Part shown: positions 19,350 through 30,965 of the stretch, one piece after another
How positions within the stretch are numbered: the stretch's first letter is position 1
Layout of the letters: the number at the start of each line of letters is the position of its first letter
Virus record (IMG/VR): IMGVR_UViG_3300010885_057925
Location: 1-64,000 of that record
Source of the DNA: a virus
Reading direction: 5' to 3' (one strand)
DNA length: 64,000 bases
The notes under the pieces: generated by a model
Seen by the model: the letters and a program-made list of their open reading frames with translations, nothing else
What the model was told of the DNA's origin: nothing
The model's database searches: none
Program-made: the position numbers and the translations under genes

Positions 19350-22300
19350 TCACTTGCATTTCGAATACCCGCACGACTTGCAGGAAAGACATCCTTCCTG
19401 ATAGACGAGCTCGGGATTGCCACACTCTGGGCACCCCTTTTCGCTTGACTTGGTACCATCCTTGATGTATCCCTTGAGGACCCGAGCGATCACCCGGGCA
19501 TATGAAAACATATCACTATTCTTATCCTTTTGCAACTGCTCCACAACATAATGAAGCGGAACTTCATGCCGCAGGGCGAGCGAGATAGTTCTCGTGAACG
19601 CGCCCTGCGTCGGATTGTCGAAAAGATTCACGATGTCCTTGAAAACGAGATTATCGTCCTCTCCGACTGGAACAAGCAGGTTGTAGGTTGCGACTCCGTC
19701 GCGCTTTCCATTCTTTACGAGCGTTCCCGATTTGTATTTCTTCGGAATCTCGATATTCTCTGGAATTCCGCAGAAAACCTCGTAAGGCTTTCCTTCGTTC
19801 AGGCCGATGAGGACGAGCCAAGATTCTGGAGTATCGCCGTTCCTGATATTGACCCTGTGGATATCACTGGGGAGCGACTTCGGGCGCTTCGGTACCAGAC
19901 GCCCGTCGTCAGCCTTCTTACTCTCCTTCTTCGGTTCATCAGCAGCTACAAGAACGCCCGCCCGACAGCCGTCGCGATAGACGGTGAATCCCTTGCACCC
20001 CGTCTTCCAGGCCTTCATGTAGACATCGTTGACCGTTTCGCGTGTTGCTGTGTTCGGCAGGTTACAGGTCTTGGAGATCGAGTGATCGATCCATTTCTGG
20101 GCAGCAGCCTGAATCTCAACAGACTTGGACCAATCGATGTCGTTCGCAGTTCCACCCCAGTAAGGACTCTCCCGTGGATCCGACTTTCCGGTGACATCCA
20201 TCCACTTTTTGAACCAGTGATGATAGACCGTATACTCCTGCCACTTGTCACCCAAGGGATCGACGTAGTCCTCTCTGGAAGTAAGATCACCCTGTGTTAT
20301 CTTACGACGACGCTTGTAGGAGAGCATGAACGCAGGCTCGATGCCAGACGTCGTACGGGTGAGGCAAGAGACTGAACCCACTGGCGCCGTGGTTGTGAGA
20401 GCGATGTTACGACGCCCCGTAGTCTTCCACATGTCGAGAGCATCATGATGGAGAGCGCTGGTAGCCCCCATGACTCCCTTCAGGTACTCGTGATCCTTCT
20501 CCTTCTCATAGTCCCAGACTGGGAACGCACCACGTTCCCGTGCCATCACAAGGGAGGAGTAGTGAGAGTACTTCGCGAGCCAACTGTAGATCACCTCGGT
20601 CATGTGAATCGAATTGTCAGATCCGTACTTGAGCCCAAGAGCTGCGAGAGCATCTCCAAGACCTGTGATACCGAGACCGGTCCGACGACCGTTAAGCCCG
20701 GCGGCTCGAATCTTGTTCCAGAGATCACGCTCGATCCGCTTCACGTGATCGGGCTGAGGATCACTCTCGATCTTCTCCAAAATGCGATCAACACATTCGA
20801 CCTCAAGATCGACGAGATCGTCCATGAGACGCTGGGCTGAGTAAACCGTCACACCGAATTCAGTGAAATCAAACTCTGCGTTCTCGGTGAACGGGTCCTT
20901 CACGAAAGACGTCAGGTTGACGACCATCAAGCGGCAGCTATCGTACGGACTGAGAGGGATTTCTCCGCAGTTCTTCACGCAAATGCCAGAAGACTCAACG
21001 AACCGCTCATCCTCGCCGGAAGTGATGACGAAGTAGTTGTGGTTGTCGTCCACAGTGATATTGAAGACATCCTCGTGTCCCACGGACTCAACAGACACAA
21101 CCTTGTGGTTGTTGATCACAGCACTCTTGAAGTTGCTGAACCTGCCAAACCTAAAGTCGTTGGCGAGGTGGAGGGGCGCACCGACATCCCTTGCGTGATC
21201 GATCCACGCCTTTCTCGTGAGCTGGCCCTGCTGATCAAAGATGCGCCGTCCCATCTCGATCAGCTGTTCGTTCGTGAATCCGCTGTACCTGCCATTCTGC
21301 TCTCCCGGATGGGAGGCGAACTTCTCCTGCCACTCTGCGTCCATGCGATGGTACGGATTGTTGGATCCCCGCATCTTGACAGCATGGAGCTCGCGGTGCT
21401 CATCGTGCGTCATGACAGTCAGGTTGTCGATGCTGTCATTCAAGCAATCGAAGTCAGCGTGATGAATGGCGTGTGTCTTGGCGTCCACGCTGCCCCTCAG
21501 GAACTCGTGGATCAGGCGGTACTGGCGCCTGTTCCTAAAACCCTCACCCTGGAGCTTCTCACCTGTGTTGCAGACCTGTCGGTACCCGTTCGAGTTGAAG
21601 GAGTTGAAGGGGACAATGCTATCTCCGGGCTGCAGATCGCACAGATTTCTGTAAGTCAGGTCCTTCAGGAGGATCTTGTGATCCGGCGTTGCCCTCAGTG
21701 TCGATCCGTCATCGAGTGTGAGCTTCCAGATCTCCTTCTTCTCTCCCGTGAGTCGAGGGTTCCTGCCCATCTTGACGACCGTCTTTCCTGACTGGAGGTC
21801 GACCGAGTAGACCGGAACATCTCTCCCCTCAGCAGCGAGCTGAGCGATCGAGACCGCGTTCCTACCGTCGGCAACAGCGATCAGGGCGTCGCCCGTGATA
21901 CACGGATTGGTGCTGATGGTCTTGTAGCCCAGGTCCTGGTAACGATCCACGATGCCGTTGTCGATAACCGTGTCCCAGAAGAGCGCACCTGGCTCCGCCG
22001 AGGCCCACGCGGCGTCGATAAACTTGTCCCAGACATGCTTCGCGTTAACGACCTTCGTGATCTGAGCCGAATCTGCCGGCTCCTCGACGGGCCAACGCAA
22101 TGTGAATTCGCTACCGCTCTCAACAGCCCGCATAAACTCATCGGTGAATCGGATGCTAATGTTAGCTCCCGTCACCTTTTTGAGGTCACGCTTTATATCG
22201 ATGAATGTCTCAATCTCGGGATGACGGCAATCGATCGTGAGCATGAGCGCGCCACGACGACCGCCCTGGGCAACCTCACGACAGGAGTTAGAGAAGCGCT

Positions 22301-22784
22301 CCATGAAGACGCCGATACCGTCTGTCGTACGCGCTGCGTTCGAGGTCGGTTGTCCCTTCGGACGGATGGTGGAGATATCGAATCCCACACCACCGCGTCG
22401 TTTCATGATCTGGACCTGCTCCTGATCCGAGAAAAGAATACCGCCATACGAATCGTTGGGCTGCTCGATGACAAAGCAGTTGGATAACGACTGCAGCTGG
22501 TATGGATTACCAATACCTGACATTGGAGATCCCTGCGGCACGATGTACTTGAAGTCACGTAACAGGCTGTAGATGCTCTCCTCATCCATCGGATTCGGGT
22601 ACTTTCTCTCGATCCTAGCAAATTCGCGAGCAAGACGACGATGCATCATGTCGGGGTCCGCCTCGAGCAGATTGTCGTCAGCGTCACGAAGCGCGTACTT
22701 CATGAAAACGTCTGGTGCCAACTCGTCATTCTCAAAGTAAGCATTAGTACGCTCACGAACTTCATTCTTGGTGTAAGACATCAT
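19350..22784 (-). CDS. nrdJ: Class II (B12-dependent) ribonucleotide reductase with intein
   Basis: SNCFV, GGVG, QGGRRGA, NP[intein]CGE, TTAPVGS, SGIEP, SISKTCN, KGFTVYRDG and a C-terminal CxxC...CxxC. Confidence 0.93.
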   Translation of the reverse strand: MMSYTKNEVRERTNAYFENDELAPDVFMKYALRDADDNLLEADPDMMHRRLAREFARIERKYPNPMDEESIYSLLRDFKYIVPQGSPMSGIGNPYQLQSLSNCFVIEQPNDSYGGILFSDQEQVQIMKRRGGVGFDISTIRPKGQPTSNAARTTDGIGVFMERFSNSCREVAQGGRRGALMLTIDCRHPEIETFIDIKRDLKKVTGANISIRFTDEFMRAVESGSEFTLRWPVEEPADSAQITKVVNAKHVWDKFIDAAWASAEPGALFWDTVIDNGIVDRYQDLGYKTISTNPCITGDALIAVADGRNAVSIAQLAAEGRDVPVYSVDLQSGKTVVKMGRNPRLTGEKKEIWKLTLDDGSTLRATPDHKILLKDLTYRNLCDLQPGDSIVPFNSFNSNGYRQVCNTGEKLQGEGFRNRRQYRLIHEFLRGSVDAKTHAIHHADFDCLNDSIDNLTVMTHDEHRELHAVKMRGSNNPYHRMDAEWQEKFASHPGEQNGRYSGFTNEQLIEMGRRIFDQQGQLTRKAWIDHARDVGAPLHLANDFRFGRFSNFKSAVINNHKVVSVESVGHEDVFNITVDDNHNYFVITSGEDERFVESSGICVKNCGEIPLSPYDSCRLMVVNLTSFVKDPFTENAEFDFTEFGVTVYSAQRLMDDLVDLEVECVDRILEKIESDPQPDHVKRIERDLWNKIRAAGLNGRRTGLGITGLGDALAALGLKYGSDNSIHMTEVIYSWLAKYSHYSSLVMARERGAFPVWDYEKEKDHEYLKGVMGATSALHHDALDMWKTTGRRNIALTTTAPVGSVSCLTRTTSGIEPAFMLSYKRRRKITQGDLTSREDYVDPLGDKWQEYTVYHHWFKKWMDVTGKSDPRESPYWGGTANDIDWSKSVEIQAAAQKWIDHSISKTCNLPNTATRETVNDVYMKAWKTGCKGFTVYRDGCRAGVLVAADEPKKESKKADDGRLVPKRPKSLPSDIHRVNIRNGDTPESWLVLIGLNEGKPYEVFCGIPENIEIPKKYKSGTLVKNGKRDGVATYNLLVPVGEDDNLVFKDIVNLFDNPTQGAFTRTISLALRHEVPLHYVVEQLQKDKNSDMFSYARVIARVLKGYIKDGTKSSEKGCPECGNPELVYQEGCLSCKSCGYSKCK
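20970..21902 (-). mobile_element. Intein (about 311 aa) with HNH endonuclease in the NrdJ active-site NPC motif
   Basis: Starts CITGDALIAVADG; block B TPDHKIL; HNH segment IHH.D....ND..DNL.....H...H; ends VFNITVDDNHNY...ICVKN before CGEIPL. Confidence 0.92.
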
Positions 22785-24190: not shown

Positions 24191-25186
24191 TTAAGTATGA
24201 AGAAGGTGACTTGTCAGTTGGAAGAAAACTCGCTCTCGATCGAAATTGTTTATTCCGGACCTGACGAGTAACCTGAGATATTCCATCTTATTGGCCTCTG
24301 GCCTAAATGATTCGAGTCCAGATTCGATTTTTCCGACTTGATTTCCCGAGAGGGAAGAGACATCGAGGTTCATAAGCTGCCAGTTGAGCCGCGCTTCGTC
24401 CGCACCTTCCACTATGCTTCGGAGCAGCTGTGGACCCTTCGGGGTGACCCGCGCGGCAGCCATGTTGACAATGTCATCCGGACTGAGCAAAGCCTCTCCA
24501 GCGACCTCCGGGAAGCGTTTAGCCATGGTCTTCCATCCAGCTCCTTCGATACCCGGAATTCCGTCCGCACCGTCACCGACAAAGCATCGAGTCGACACGA
24601 AGTTCCTCGCTGTGCACCCGAAGCGGGTCAGAACGTCAGGTTCGTTAACGAAAGACTTCGAAGTTGGGCTCCAGATCCTCACACGACCGTCGAGAAGCTG
24701 GTAGTAGTCCTTGTCGGACGACATGATGACACAAGGATCGTCCTTTAAGCGGTAGCGGGCAACGTAAGCGATGACGTCGTCAGCCTCACAGTCGGTGACG
24801 TAGCTCTGCTGGACAGGTAAAAGCTTCAGAATCTGAACAAGAGTCGCAACCTGCCAGTTCCTGTTTCCCACAGTGTCGGGAATATCGCCCTCGTAGTACC
24901 TGTTGAGCTTTTGGGGCTTCCGTTTCGTCTTGTACTCGGAGAAAAGTGCCCGACGTCTGGGAGAGCCACCGCCCTCCCAGACAACGATGACCCGTCGTGG
25001 GCTCAGAAACTCACATTTCTGCCCAAGCTCGTTCAGAAAACCCACAATTCCACCGACAGCCTGCCCGTTGGCACCCAACGTGGGGTTCGCGCAGAAATGT
25101 CGCGTAAAACAGTTGAGCTAAAGACCGTCAATTAGGAGTGTTGGTCTCCCACTGACGGTCTTCTCCTTTAAAGTTAGAGATTGCAT
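24191..25186 (-). CDS. 5'-3' exonuclease/RNase H (FEN-like) with in-frame TAG at codon 23
   Basis: From ATG 25186: MQSLTLKEKTVSGRPTLLIDGL*LNCFTRHFCANPTLGANG..., then RR..Y.EYK..R, EADD, SSDKD and GDGADGIPG. The ORF track reports only 24191..25078, which lacks the first catalytic motif. Confidence 0.85.
25121..25162 (-). promoter_or_regulatory. Stem-loop ending at the CTT codon before the in-frame TAG (candidate recoding signal)
   Basis: AAGACCGTCAGTGGGAG-accaaca-CTCCTAATTGACGGTCTT, with a perfect 10-bp outer stem. Confidence 0.7.
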
Positions 25187-26138
25187 TTTCTATCGTTCCT
25201 TGAAAGTTTTCGGTTAGGTTCTTCTGCCAGATACAACAAAAACTATAACCTGATTGGATCGCGAGTTCAGCTTTCATTCTGTCTCTCGACCGAATCTCTG
25301 CAGCACGAACGTCTCGACGCTCATCGTAATGATTCTCAGAATACAGCTCAGGATTGAAGTGCCAGTAATCTCCGTTAATCTCTATCATCAGATTTAATTC
25401 TTCAACGAAGATGTCATACACTCGATTCTTAATTCGATGTGAATGCTTACAAGTGAATCTTTCACTCAAGTAATCAAATACGTCTTTTTCGATTTGGCTT
25501 CTCCACAGCCCGTTTCCGCGGTCAAACGCGCCGTCCTCCCACATCCTGCGAGTTCTTTCAGAAATTTTTTCGCGAACTACCTCACTGTGGTTTCGCCCTT
25601 TCATCCAGCAAGTTCCACCGTTCTTAAAGAATCGAAGCTTGGCTTGCTTCATTTTCTGCTTTGTTTCTTCTGACATCTTGAATCTTCTACCTGTCATTTT
25701 TTGAGAGAATTTTTCGTAGATGCCGTTTCTTATCTTAGTTTCTTTAGCTTTCGCAGCGCCCGCAATCAACGATTCCTTAGTTCGCAGCGGCCCAACTTCT
25801 TCGATCCTCTTCTTTAGAGACTCAGATATCTTCTTCTTAGTCTCTTGTGTATGACGAACCCCAACATGACTCGCTGCAATTTTTTTCTTTCGTTCCTCGG
25901 GCATGGGGCCATGCTTTCGCCCTTTATTGACTTTAACGCTAGCGATGTTTCTTCTATTCATCGCGGTTTTCCACGCTACCTCAGAGTATTTTTCCTCTCC
26001 AAGCTCGTGCTTCAACATTTTGATAGTTTTATTTCTCCCGAATCCCCATAAAGCTCTGACTTCATCGATCGTTGAGCCATTCAAAAACGCCGCTACACCA
26101 ACTTCAACGCTTTCAGACAAGCTAGCCTCCATGAACAC
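25128..26138 (-). CDS. Free-standing homing endonuclease (NUMOD3 repeats plus Vsr/EDxHD-like nuclease)
   Basis: Repeats HTQETKKKISES, MSEETKQKMK and HSEVVREKISE; C-terminal SQIE...YDIF...IEINGDYWH...D..K. It is more AT-rich than its flanks and overlaps the start of the exonuclease gene. Confidence 0.85.
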   Translation of the reverse strand: MFMEASLSESVEVGVAAFLNGSTIDEVRALWGFGRNKTIKMLKHELGEEKYSEVAWKTAMNRRNIASVKVNKGRKHGPMPEERKKKIAASHVGVRHTQETKKKISESLKKRIEEVGPLRTKESLIAGAAKAKETKIRNGIYEKFSQKMTGRRFKMSEETKQKMKQAKLRFFKNGGTCWMKGRNHSEVVREKISERTRRMWEDGAFDRGNGLWRSQIEKDVFDYLSERFTCKHSHRIKNRVYDIFVEELNLMIEINGDYWHFNPELYSENHYDERRDVRAAEIRSRDRMKAELAIQSGYSFCCIWQKNLTENFQGTIENAISNFKGEDRQWETNTPN

Positions 26139-26178
26139 GATTAAATATTCACGGAGGTTAGCGCTGAATTAACTTATT

Positions 26179-27381
26179 TCAACTTTCCGGATCGATGTCG
26201 GCACCAACCATCTGGTCACGAAAAGCTCTCATCTCCTCGTAGGACTCAGGATCGATGTCAAGGTCATTCGCGCTCACGGTGGTACGGATGAGAGCTTTCT
26301 CCAGGAGCCCATCGATCCACGGCTTGTACTGGGGATCCTTCCACAGGTCACCGAAATCAGCCTTGTAGAACTTCTTCTCGAGGATATTCTCGTTCCTTTC
26401 GTTGGTTACCTTGATCGTCTTCCACGCGCTGGTGCCCTCGACCGAAACCTGATGGTCGTTAATCATGTCGGGACCATGTTCACGAAGAACGTCAAAGACT
26501 TCCTCATGTTCCTCGATGCCCTTGCCGAAGATGATCCTGAACTCGACCTTTCGGAAGGGCGGAGCGACCTTGTTCTTGATCGTTTTTGCCCAGACGTTAA
26601 TACCGATCGCCTCACCCTGCTTATTCTCGATGTGGGAACCAGCTCCGAGCTTGAGACGAACCGAGGCGTGGAACGGGATCGCCATACCGCCGGGGGTCGT
26701 CGTGGGGTCACCATGCATCACGCCGATCTTCGTGCGGATCTGGTTAAGGATGACGAAGAGGACGTTCTGATCTCCGATGACACCAGTGATCTTTCGCATG
26801 CCCTTCGAGATCGCGCGCGCCTGAAGGCCGATGGTATCCTTGTCGTAAGCACCCTCAAGCTCAGCTTTCGGTGAGGATGCTGCCACTGAGTCCCAGATGA
26901 TCGTGATCGGGACGTCCTTTGCCATCGCTTTCGCCTTCAGGATCGTCTTCTCAGCGATATCAAGCACCTCCTCGGTGCAGTGAGTATCAACATAGACAAA
27001 CCGCTTGCTCACATCGACCCCCAACGCCGCCAGGTTCTCAACCGAGGTGCCGTTCTCGGTATCGATGTAGACTACGATGCCGCCCATCGACTGGGTCGAT
27101 CGGGCGATCTGGGTCGCGATGTGAGACTTTCCGATCGACGGAGGCCCAAAGATCTCCACGATTCGCCCCTCCGGGAGTCCACCCTTCGCTCGATTTGAAA
27201 CGACGAGATCAAGCTGCTTGGATCCGCTGGAGATCCAGCGCTTTACGTGGGTCGGTGACGTATCAACAGCTAGATTGTATGCGATTCGAGAGCCGTGATC
27301 CTTATTAAGGGACGAGATGAGCTCACTGGTAAAATCATCAGCAGCAGTCTTCGCTGCTGCCGTAGTATCCTTCTTTGCCAT
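26179..27381 (-). CDS. recA: RecA/UvsX recombinase
   Basis: GGLPEGRIVEIFGPPSIGKS, IDTEN, WDSVAA, NQIRTKIG, TPGG.A..F.ASVR, KNKVAPPF. Confidence 0.96.
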   Translation of the reverse strand: MAKKDTTAAAKTAADDFTSELISSLNKDHGSRIAYNLAVDTSPTHVKRWISSGSKQLDLVVSNRAKGGLPEGRIVEIFGPPSIGKSHIATQIARSTQSMGGIVVYIDTENGTSVENLAALGVDVSKRFVYVDTHCTEEVLDIAEKTILKAKAMAKDVPITIIWDSVAASSPKAELEGAYDKDTIGLQARAISKGMRKITGVIGDQNVLFVILNQIRTKIGVMHGDPTTTPGGMAIPFHASVRLKLGAGSHIENKQGEAIGINVWAKTIKNKVAPPFRKVEFRIIFGKGIEEHEEVFDVLREHGPDMINDHQVSVEGTSAWKTIKVTNERNENILEKKFYKADFGDLWKDPQYKPWIDGLLEKALIRTTVSANDLDIDPESYEEMRAFRDQMVGADIDPES

Positions 27382-29372: not shown

Positions 29373-29801
29373 TCAACTAACGATCATTTTCACTATAACT
29401 TTATTTCCTGAGCGCTCGATGAATGTCCGCTGTGGAAGCGCGATTCGATTCATGAGCTCTGCTACGGCGAGGGTGTCGCGGACGAAATACTCACCCATCA
29501 GTCCCTGTCGAAAATCTGACAGGTCACGCGACATCGGAAGAATAACGTAGTACTCTCCGCTGGACGTCTTCATATCGATATCCTCGAAGAGCCCAGAGAG
29601 CGGCTTGGATTGAATCGCTCGCTCCAGAACTTCGTACGCCTCTTTGTGAAAGTCCTCTCCCTTTCCATAGTACGAACCTAAATTTAGGCCGCCTATCATT
29701 GAGGCTGGATCTGACTTAACTTTACCCGACGCACGACTTGAGAGCTTCGCTTCACCGAAACGCGGGTACTTGGACTTAAACTTGTTCCTGAGCGCGCTCA
29801 C
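29373..29801 (-). CDS. Hypothetical protein
   Basis: 142 aa ORF filling the gap between flanking genes; GAGGAG RBS. Confidence 0.55.
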   Translation of the reverse strand: MSALRNKFKSKYPRFGEAKLSSRASGKVKSDPASMIGGLNLGSYYGKGEDFHKEAYEVLERAIQSKPLSGLFEDIDMKTSSGEYYVILPMSRDLSDFRQGLMGEYFVRDTLAVAELMNRIALPQRTFIERSGNKVIVKMIVS

Positions 29802-30965
29802 TCATCCCTCCTCATCTACATAGGCTGGCTCGAAAGAAAGATAAAAGTGGCCGAGACGATCTATTTCGACGCCTTCACTCGCGATCTCTCTCATGCGAGA
29901 GATTGAATCGGGATGACAATCTACAAGCAGCGCGTCGTGGAGGACAAACACGGGTTGGACCAGCAGGTCCTCGGATTCGACCCTATTCATGATATCGCTG
30001 AATCCCATAAGCGAGACGTCGACGGCAGTTGATTGAGCGTAGTGTGATATCGCAAGATGCGGATCGCCTGCTTCAAGAAGCGGACGACCCCAGAAGTTTT
30101 TAGGTTCATCTGAGTCTATGATTCTACGACGAAGGGATTCCAAGCCGAAGTAATCGTTGATCTCCCTCATCAGCCGAGAGGCGTCAGCACCGACCTCCTC
30201 TCGAACTGACTGTCCTGAAGCACCGTAAAGAGACTTGAGAGTCGCAAGCTTCGCATGACGTCTATCGACTCCTTTCAAACGCTCAGCAATCGCTCCGTAG
30301 ATATCAGCCGGGGCCTCACCGCTTCGAAGGAGTCTGAGAACTCTAGGTTCGAGTGACACGAAGTCGATCTGGTATACTTTTCCGCCGTCGTATCGACTCG
30401 CGAGAATCTTTCTATGCGACTTTTGAAGCGTAAGAATCCTGGGACCTTCCGAGATCGTTAAGCGCCCGGTCGCAGTCCTATGAGAGTAAATCACGGGGCC
30501 AGCCATGCTATCGGACCCAGGTTCAAAAGTTTCGAGAACGTTGAGCTGCTGCGATTCAGACTGAGCTACCCGAAGAGCGGCGAGATCGATTCGACAGGGA
30601 ACGAGGCGCTCGAGAATGGAACGGCCCAAGGACAGCACATCAGAGTAATCACCAACAACCGCCAGAAGCTCTTCGAGCTCATCCGAGATCGTGGACAGGT
30701 TCTCATATAGAACGCGTTGTGGGATGACCAGAGGCCACGGGACTGCCCCTCGTGACAGCCCATCCATCGAGCTGACAAACTCGGGTGGGATAAGCTGCGG
30801 CAGCTCCCTGTCGCATGATTCGTAAATGGATTCGATCGAACGAGCCACCGAACGATCTCCGACGCACCAAGCGTTTTCCGGAACCTGCTCGGACCAGGAG
30901 AGCTTTCCTTCCCCTAAAATCGCGTGTTTTGGAGAGTTCAGGGCTAGTTTTGACGCGTACATCAT
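29802..30965 (-). CDS. Family A DNA polymerase core (no exonuclease domains)
   Basis: TATGRLT, motif A DFVSLEPRVL, motif B RRHAKLATLKSLYG, QSTAVD, motif C LHDAL. Confidence 0.82.
   Translation of the reverse strand: MMYASKLALNSPKHAILGEGKLSWSEQVPENAWCVGDRSVARSIESIYESCDRELPQLIPPEFVSSMDGLSRGAVPWPLVIPQRVLYENLSTISDELEELLAVVGDYSDVLSLGRSILERLVPCRIDLAALRVAQSESQQLNVLETFEPGSDSMAGPVIYSHRTATGRLTISEGPRILTLQKSHRKILASRYDGGKVYQIDFVSLEPRVLRLLRSGEAPADIYGAIAERLKGVDRRHAKLATLKSLYGASGQSVREEVGADASRLMREINDYFGLESLRRRIIDSDEPKNFWGRPLLEAGDPHLAISHYAQSTAVDVSLMGFSDIMNRVESEDLLVQPVFVLHDALLVDCHPDSISRMREIASEGVEIDRLGHFYLSFEPAYVDEEG

Follow-up and report, generated by a model that had tools for sequence, protein, structure and literature searches.

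A putative stop-hop in the catalytic motif of a phage flap endonuclease gene, carried by a homing-endonuclease cassette

The window analyzed here, the whole 64,000-nt stretch of DNA, covers the opening 64 kb of a tailed-phage record of 171.5 kb. The only copy of a flap-endonuclease gene within that record contains six surplus bases inside its catalytic DGxN motif, which reads D-G, CUU-UAG-CUC, N. Most probably the interruption is a site of programmed bypassing over a very short distance (a stop-hop), which a homing-endonuclease cassette has brought in. A stop-hop had been suggested in an initial annotation of this DNA. The suggestion held up in comparisons with uninterrupted (plain) homologs, in the compensatory changes of a hairpin and in dN/dS, with the hop itself predicted from these sequence comparisons.

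The interrupted flap endonuclease gene

The minus strand carries, in order, a gp32-like SSB, recA, a 336-aa ORF, the nuclease gene, a DnaB helicase and a ribonucleotide reductase. The nuclease gene starts at an ATG (25186-25184) with AAGGA 10 nt upstream. Reading from this ATG yields 22 codons ending in Asp-Gly-Leu, then TAG, CTC and 308 sense codons before a TAA at 24193-24191 (Table 1). The coordinates, junction codons, hairpin position and 308-codon continuation in the initial annotation were all reproduced. The same hairpin and junction occur in independent JGI and Logan assemblies (L004, L056, L057).

Table 1. Features of the interrupted nuclease gene and its surroundings in the window.
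Feature	Position	Strand	Description
ORF1 of flap endonuclease	25121..25186	-	22 codons; cassette-encoded N-terminal extension, first beta-strand and catalytic Asp (codon 20); ends in the take-off codon
Take-off codon CUU (Leu)	25121..25123	-	66 distinct elements: CUU 57, CUC 5, CUG 3, CUA 1; CUU is 15% of Leu codons in the same genes
In-frame stop UAG	25118..25120	-	66 distinct elements: UAG 32, UGA 20, UAA 14
Landing codon CUC	25115..25117	-	66 distinct elements: CUC 24, CUU 20, CUA 11, CUG 10, UUC 1 (CUN in 65/66); right edge of cassette at most 5 bases from the codon start
ORF2, remainder of flap endonuclease / 5′-3′ exonuclease	24191..25114	-	begins at the Asn of DGxN
RNA hairpin, ~17 bp	25121..25162	-	3′ arm is coding sequence up to the take-off codon
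Shine-Dalgarno-like AGGAG	25163..25167	-	directly 5′ of the hairpin
Putative free-standing homing endonuclease, 336 aa	25128..26138	-	NUMOD3 repeat, C-terminal nuclease domain
Inferred mobile cassette	25113..26195	-	last recA codons, endonuclease gene, replacement gene start, hairpin, stop, landing codon
recA/uvsX	26179..27381	-	borders directly on the start of the nuclease gene in the majority of close plain relatives

The ORF2 frame matches Pfam 5_3_exonuc_N (E 3.7e-21, profile positions 11-164) and also 5_3_exonuc. The first match begins at profile position 11, and ORF2 thus lacks the first strand. Judged by Pfam and a homolog model, the protein is a FEN, with the FEN fold, the conserved acidic motifs and a first Asp that ends strand 1. 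The Asp before the break (D20) is invariant in 95 aligned proteins. A structure model of a plain homolog (P0001, 90% identical; pLDDT 92) matches the folds of T5 FEN, M. smegmatis Fen, ExoIX and T4 RNase H. In this model the invariant Asp ends strand 1 and the next helix begins at the Gly, which locates the insert at the first active-site motif.

Most close viral loci (35/40) have a plain D-[GA]-x-N, mostly with the start codon right after recA, and these plain relatives begin 12 codons before Leu-Asn. In the other five the Leu-stop-Leu insert recurs, its stop being TAG, TGA or TAA. None of the 120 protein homologs listed has a two-residue sense insert. All five truncated database proteins that were traced (P0002, P0008-P0011) derive from insert-bearing loci, and the insert accounts for many phage nuclease genes annotated without their catalytic N-terminus.

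Both halves of the gene are under coding constraint. The dN/dS of ORF2 is 0.035-0.056 between the window and four element-bearing relatives and 0.035-0.11 for other element-bearing pairs (0.057 for L237 and L274), close to the plain controls at 0.022-0.024. The pairs with low values include clades in which all sampled members carry the element. Most changes in the 12 codons that follow the stop and precede the next start are synonymous, and downstream start codons are not conserved, the first one lying anywhere from codon 2 to nowhere within 50 codons. Together these results argue against a pseudogene and against a restart at TTG 25078. The initial annotation had proposed relaxed selection downstream of the TAG as a sign of a pseudogene, and none was found. 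It had also dismissed the TTG restart for the loss of the catalytic Asp, a view that the variable starts and the synonymous variation before them bear out.

A genome-wide scan for a stem, matched codons around a stop and a long open frame returned only the target site and one weaker site. The latter (window 50986, minus strand; 9-bp stem, Glu codons) lies inside a 420-aa ORF and is probably a chance match. Elsewhere in the window, an in-frame ORF pair at 29801/29802 was considered as a second hop and rejected as ordinary translational coupling with its own SD. One member of the pair is a 387-aa ORF (29802-30965) with a weak DNA polymerase A match, possibly a degenerate or partial polymerase; the ORF next to it starts in frame right after its stop and has its own SD.

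The element and its homing-endonuclease cassette

Pattern scans of phage sequences identified 104 loci with 66 distinct elements, each of ~50 nt in total and scattered over deep branches of the nuclease family. The element counts share ancestry and are not phylogenetically independent, but even close pairs approach saturation at synonymous sites elsewhere. Some scans fixed both Leu codons, and 28 distinct elements from unconstrained scans were tallied separately. Among these 28, the take-off codon is CUN in all (CUU in 24) and the landing codon is CUN in 27, the exception being UUC. UUA and UUG make up 54% of the Leu codons in the element-bearing genes, and the codon following DG is non-CUN in 17/34 plain genes. 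Exact identity of take-off and landing codons is found in 21/66 elements and a CUU followed by CUA or CUG in 19/66; the rule holds for the first two bases only. The matched codons of the initial annotation are thus present in the window as CUU/CUC, but exact matching does not extend to the family.

One scan pattern required AGGAG and both Leu codons, which overstated the SD, and it was repeated with a free gap and a free middle codon. With the middle codon left free, a stop was found in 84/84 nuclease loci, and a sense codon in none. Near-identical elements differ solely by the stop in two cases, L335 versus the L294 group (TGA vs TAA) and the window versus L045 (TAG vs TAA), and these differences are direct stop-to-stop substitutions. 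Among the matches listed for bacterial genomes, the pattern gave chance matches only. Cultured phages bearing the element were not found, and a DNA search had no match; the closest cultured phages, Microcystis phage Mel-JY01 and Flavobacterium phage immuto, are plain.

The hairpin has one bulge and a 7-nt loop and is present in both the MFE and centroid folds. Its folding z is −3.0, with 2/200 shuffles equally stable. The 5′ arm is complementary to the Asp-Gly codons in 52/53 scorable elements, compared with 3/34 plain genes. The third base of the Asp codon covaries with its partner (C-G 31, U-A 20, U-G 1, C-A 0), and the third base of the Gly codon does likewise. In an ungapped alignment of 15 sequences, 92% of the cells in the 12-bp lower stem pair (18-49% in slid controls), and four pairs of this stem show two-sided change. 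A plain DGxN in homologs, and the insert recurring with compensatory changes in the hairpin, is what the initial annotation had expected of such an alignment. The distance from the arm to the Asp is a multiple of 3 in 51/52 elements and ORF1 is open from the start codon wherever the contig extends far enough, which argues that the hairpin region is translated.

It had also been proposed that the stem extends by pairing GAG with CUC, bulging out the UAG. This is not a general feature: the third pair is broken in 7/15 sequences, the remaining two pairs are invariant, and no conserved helix lies 3′ of the bulge. The AGGAG 5′ of the hairpin is invariant in 15 aligned short-loop elements but is not universal, and an SD-like word lies no more than 10 nt from the hairpin arm in 42/66 scored loci. 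It is a possible landing aid.

The 336-aa ORF overlaps ORF1 by 59 nt in a different frame. Besides its NUMOD3 repeat it has matches to PHROG homing/HNH endonuclease families, and its homologs match REase_MTES_1575. Immediately upstream of the nuclease gene, an endonuclease gene is present at 27/61 element loci and 0/32 plain loci. Two kinds are found beside elements, relatives of the window protein and HNH-NUMOD3 proteins. The window and L004 have 5 mismatches in ~1,080 nt, from the last recA codons to just past the landing codon, in contrast to flanks that differ by 7-22% per 100 nt on both sides (78-93% identical). This identity boundary places the cassette at ~26195-25113. The cassette of ~1.08 kb has moved recently, with the element as its 3′ end, and the unit travels between phages together with an endonuclease gene. 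Mapped on a FastTree protein tree, the element requires 18 changes, and genes that carry it are interspersed among plain ones of 93-96% identity. Where the endonuclease is absent, the element and cassette remnants are still present, and the element seems to persist after endonuclease loss. The earlier description of a minimal 6-nt element agrees with the six surplus bases, but the site does not stand alone, since it forms the end of a homing-endonuclease cassette; in some relatives the gap is also longer.

Other mobile elements were seen nearby. recA is broken near residue 229 in L046, L049 and L050, in L066, and in L040 and L304. The breaks look like split-intein halves, the N-half starting with Cys and the C-half ending in His-Asn. 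An endonuclease ORF lies between the intein-like halves in L050, and L066 seems to carry a recA intein in cis. A split intein with an endonuclease is a known “fractured gene” arrangement (PMC2677866), and broken recA genes of this type suggest that the recA-nuclease region is a hotspot for mobile nucleases. The ribonucleotide reductase in the window (19350-22784) has an intein holding an HNH domain. An AT-rich stretch just before the endonuclease gene (26142-26150) is possibly its own promoter; no sigma-70 site was found on the strand of this gene.

A proposed stop-hop and its alternatives

In the mechanism we propose, a ribosome would start at the upstream ATG, melt the hairpin and pause with CUU in the P site and the stop in the A site. 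In the paused ribosome the 3′ arm of the hairpin would lie inside the mRNA exit channel, and its re-zipping would pull the message. Peptidyl-tRNA-Leu would then leave CUU and re-pair six bases on at the next CUN, and decoding would resume at Asn. The insert may serve to interrupt the endonuclease's conserved target in the DGxN codons, which would make cassette-bearing alleles immune, and the hop would keep the nuclease gene working despite the insert. For gene 60, a 5′ stem-loop has been proposed as the motor that pulls the mRNA during bypassing (PMC5009743). In E. coli 70S lysates, forward slippage at CUU-UGA was stimulated by upstream hairpins, but only without RF2 (PMC6321510). Competition with termination may therefore keep the efficiency of the hop low.

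Further points count against a hop. The 19 elements with CUA or CUG after CUU, and an AUC at the landing site of L244 and L274, imply imperfect re-pairing. The nascent peptide of ORF1 is short (22 aa here) and variable, with no evident signal of the gene 60 type. In some hosts a wobble-expanded tRNA-Leu(UAG) could serve all four CUN codons. The 20 phage tRNA genes (G000 147053-163242, outside the window) include Leu anticodons UAA and CAA only, which read only UUA and UUG, and no suppressor tRNA.

Three further lineages carry stop-led gaps of 8 or 10 bases that change the frame. In L237 and L394, from distant branches, an 8-nt gap that opens with UGA separates the take-off CUU from a CUU or CUG, which Asn follows. 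The gap of L244 and L274 is 10 nt, with AUC preceding Asn. The hairpin and an intact ORF2 are retained in all four. A +1 frameshift was rejected, as the +1 frame closes after 29 codons in the window and L244 has a stop two codons on. A −1 frameshift would formally fit the two 8-nt loci only, where it would add four residues, and fails for the 10-nt gap. A second small hairpin, enclosing the landing codon, is possible 3′ of the stop in the long-gap variants (L237:661-745, L244, L274), and in these three the stop is immediately followed by an ATG whose frame is not that of ORF2.

The frame-changing gaps bear directly on stop-codon readthrough, in which a near-cognate or suppressor tRNA would decode the stop to give D-G-L-X-L-N, since readthrough cannot join ORF1 to ORF2 across 8 or 10 nt. 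Readthrough would keep the frame in the 6-nt class, and the base following the stop is C in 65/66 elements. A C after the stop is a weak termination context. AlphaFold still folds the readthrough protein (mean pLDDT 91), but in this model the helix that follows the catalytic Asp is unwound at its start (local pLDDT 78, against 94 in the plain form), a weak indication because the underlying alignment has no insert. All three stops are used, UAA included, and no sense-codon version occurs in the 84 loci, although a single mutation would create one that is translated in full. With no suppressor among the phage tRNAs, and with CUU and the hairpin behind the ribosome left unexplained, we regard readthrough as very unlikely. 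Genome-wide recoding or suppression of TAG was rejected on the three stop types, the long ORFs that close normally in code 11 and the lack of a suppressor tRNA.

Hairpin-guided removal of the insert at the RNA level, either as a micro-intron cleaved by an endonuclease and then religated or through trans-excision by a ribozyme, would accommodate gaps of any length, and is slightly less likely again. The site adjoins a conserved helix, the six bases lie between direct CU repeats, and a degenerate-intron origin has been suggested for the gene 60 insert (PMC5009743). Against it, no Rfam match was found at the gathering and E-value thresholds, the gap ends in A in 34/66 elements and so has no conserved terminal G, and the helix does not continue as a conserved one 3′ of the bulge. 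The genome record, estimated to be 51% complete, has no RtcB. An in-frame stop of any type exactly after CUU is the signature of a ribosome, not of an RNA enzyme. A group I intron was specifically rejected, for lack of an Rfam match to the catalytic core and of the terminal G.

A split gene would release the 22-aa peptide and start ORF2 separately, at the Leu codon via a hairpin-looped SD or at a downstream start, with the pieces assembling or the truncated protein working alone. Homing endonucleases are known to split phage genes (PMC2677866), a TTG is present at 25078, and an SD-like word often precedes the hairpin. However, this word is missing in a third of the loci, none of the 28 unconstrained elements has AUG, GUG or UUG directly after the stop, and the downstream starts are as scattered as described above. 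With the invariant Asp in ORF1, a split gene is highly improbable. A selfish knock-out with host Pol I as the substitute, to which recent homing transfers would leave little time for decay, or an assembly artefact is largely refuted and barely credible, given the low dN/dS even in clades where all sampled members carry the element, an ORF2 intact in nearly all loci, the covariation and stop-to-stop substitutions, and a junction that recurs in independent assemblies.

Comparison with known bypassing systems

Very few natural cases of programmed bypassing are known, and the role of mRNA re-pairing at the ribosome exit as a motor is debated. A stop-hop at the nuclease gene would provide dozens of natural variants, with three stops, four landing codons, different loop lengths and jumps of 6, 11 or 13 nt. 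With an element of this size the motor could be tested in isolation. We think it likely that these loci represent a natural and widespread family of minimal stop-hops that has no relation to T4 gene 60 in either sequence or host gene. One upstream hairpin, a CUU and any stop would bypass 6-13 nt efficiently enough to supply a replication nuclease, and homing endonucleases of at least two families would use it as an intron-free seat on a catalytic motif. This suggests a third route, beside introns and inteins, for homing endonucleases to occupy conserved coding sites. We found no published description of the element in the literature covered, which was mostly open papers.

By its codons the element would fit the definition of a stop-hop. 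No natural in-frame stop-hop was known up to a 2016 review, and those in E. coli are low-level events in synthetic constructs (PMC5009743). As in these constructs, matched codons flank a single in-frame stop and nine nucleotides would specify one residue. Their product is two residues shorter than that of readthrough, which is also predicted for the phage nuclease. Unlike the synthetic cases, the site is natural, conserved and needed for an active site, and has a hairpin as a candidate stimulator.

Short bypasses are also known from the Streptomyces phage Hau3 terminase (PMC10732093) and from the mitochondrial byps of Magnusiomyces (PMC5009743). The byps tolerate two-of-three re-pairing and have spread like mobile elements, as here. 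However, both are triggered by hungry or unused sense codons rather than stops, and are found in other genes and other hosts. The prfB (RF2) site, CUU-UGA-C, shares the shift-prone CUU before a stop followed by C, and an upstream duplex drives forward movement there as well (PMC6321510). The frame that is productive in the phage gene needs +6, not +1. There is a hairpin instead of an SD 3 nt upstream, and any stop serves.

The closest parallels are with T4 gene 60 and MobA. Like them, the element has a stop right after the take-off codon (66/66 elements and the three out-of-frame lineages), a matching landing codon (CUU/CUC in the window, as a rule only in the first two bases across elements) and a 5′ stem-loop. 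In MobA, too, a free-standing homing endonuclease overlaps a new N-terminal extension and supplies the homologous replacement segment, the landing codon marks the end of the element, the endonuclease can be replaced or lost, and the insert follows Asp-Gly (10.1101/2022.08.31.505936). The differences are several. The host gene is a flap endonuclease and not the large subunit of topoisomerase II, the bypass is 6 (rarely 11 or 13) nt instead of 20-50 nt, and the take-off codon is Leu instead of Gly or Asp. ORF1 is 22 codons here and ~19-42 in relatives, compared to an N-terminal extension of 44-45 aa in MobA. Gene 60 has a take-off stem-loop whose 5′ strand holds the take-off codon and whose loop is a stable tetraloop; this structure is absent here, and take-off would occur at the 3′ foot of an upstream hairpin. 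Also absent are the 45-aa nascent-peptide signal of gene 60 and its mini-SD, located 5-7 nt ahead of the landing site; any SD-like word in the phage loci lies 5′ of the hairpin. In the element it is the upstream hairpin that is conserved, whereas the 5′ stem-loop is poorly conserved in MobA clades. Thus the element would work like gene 60 bypassing without being a member of that group, from which it differs in host gene, gap length, take-off codon, take-off stem-loop and mini-SD.
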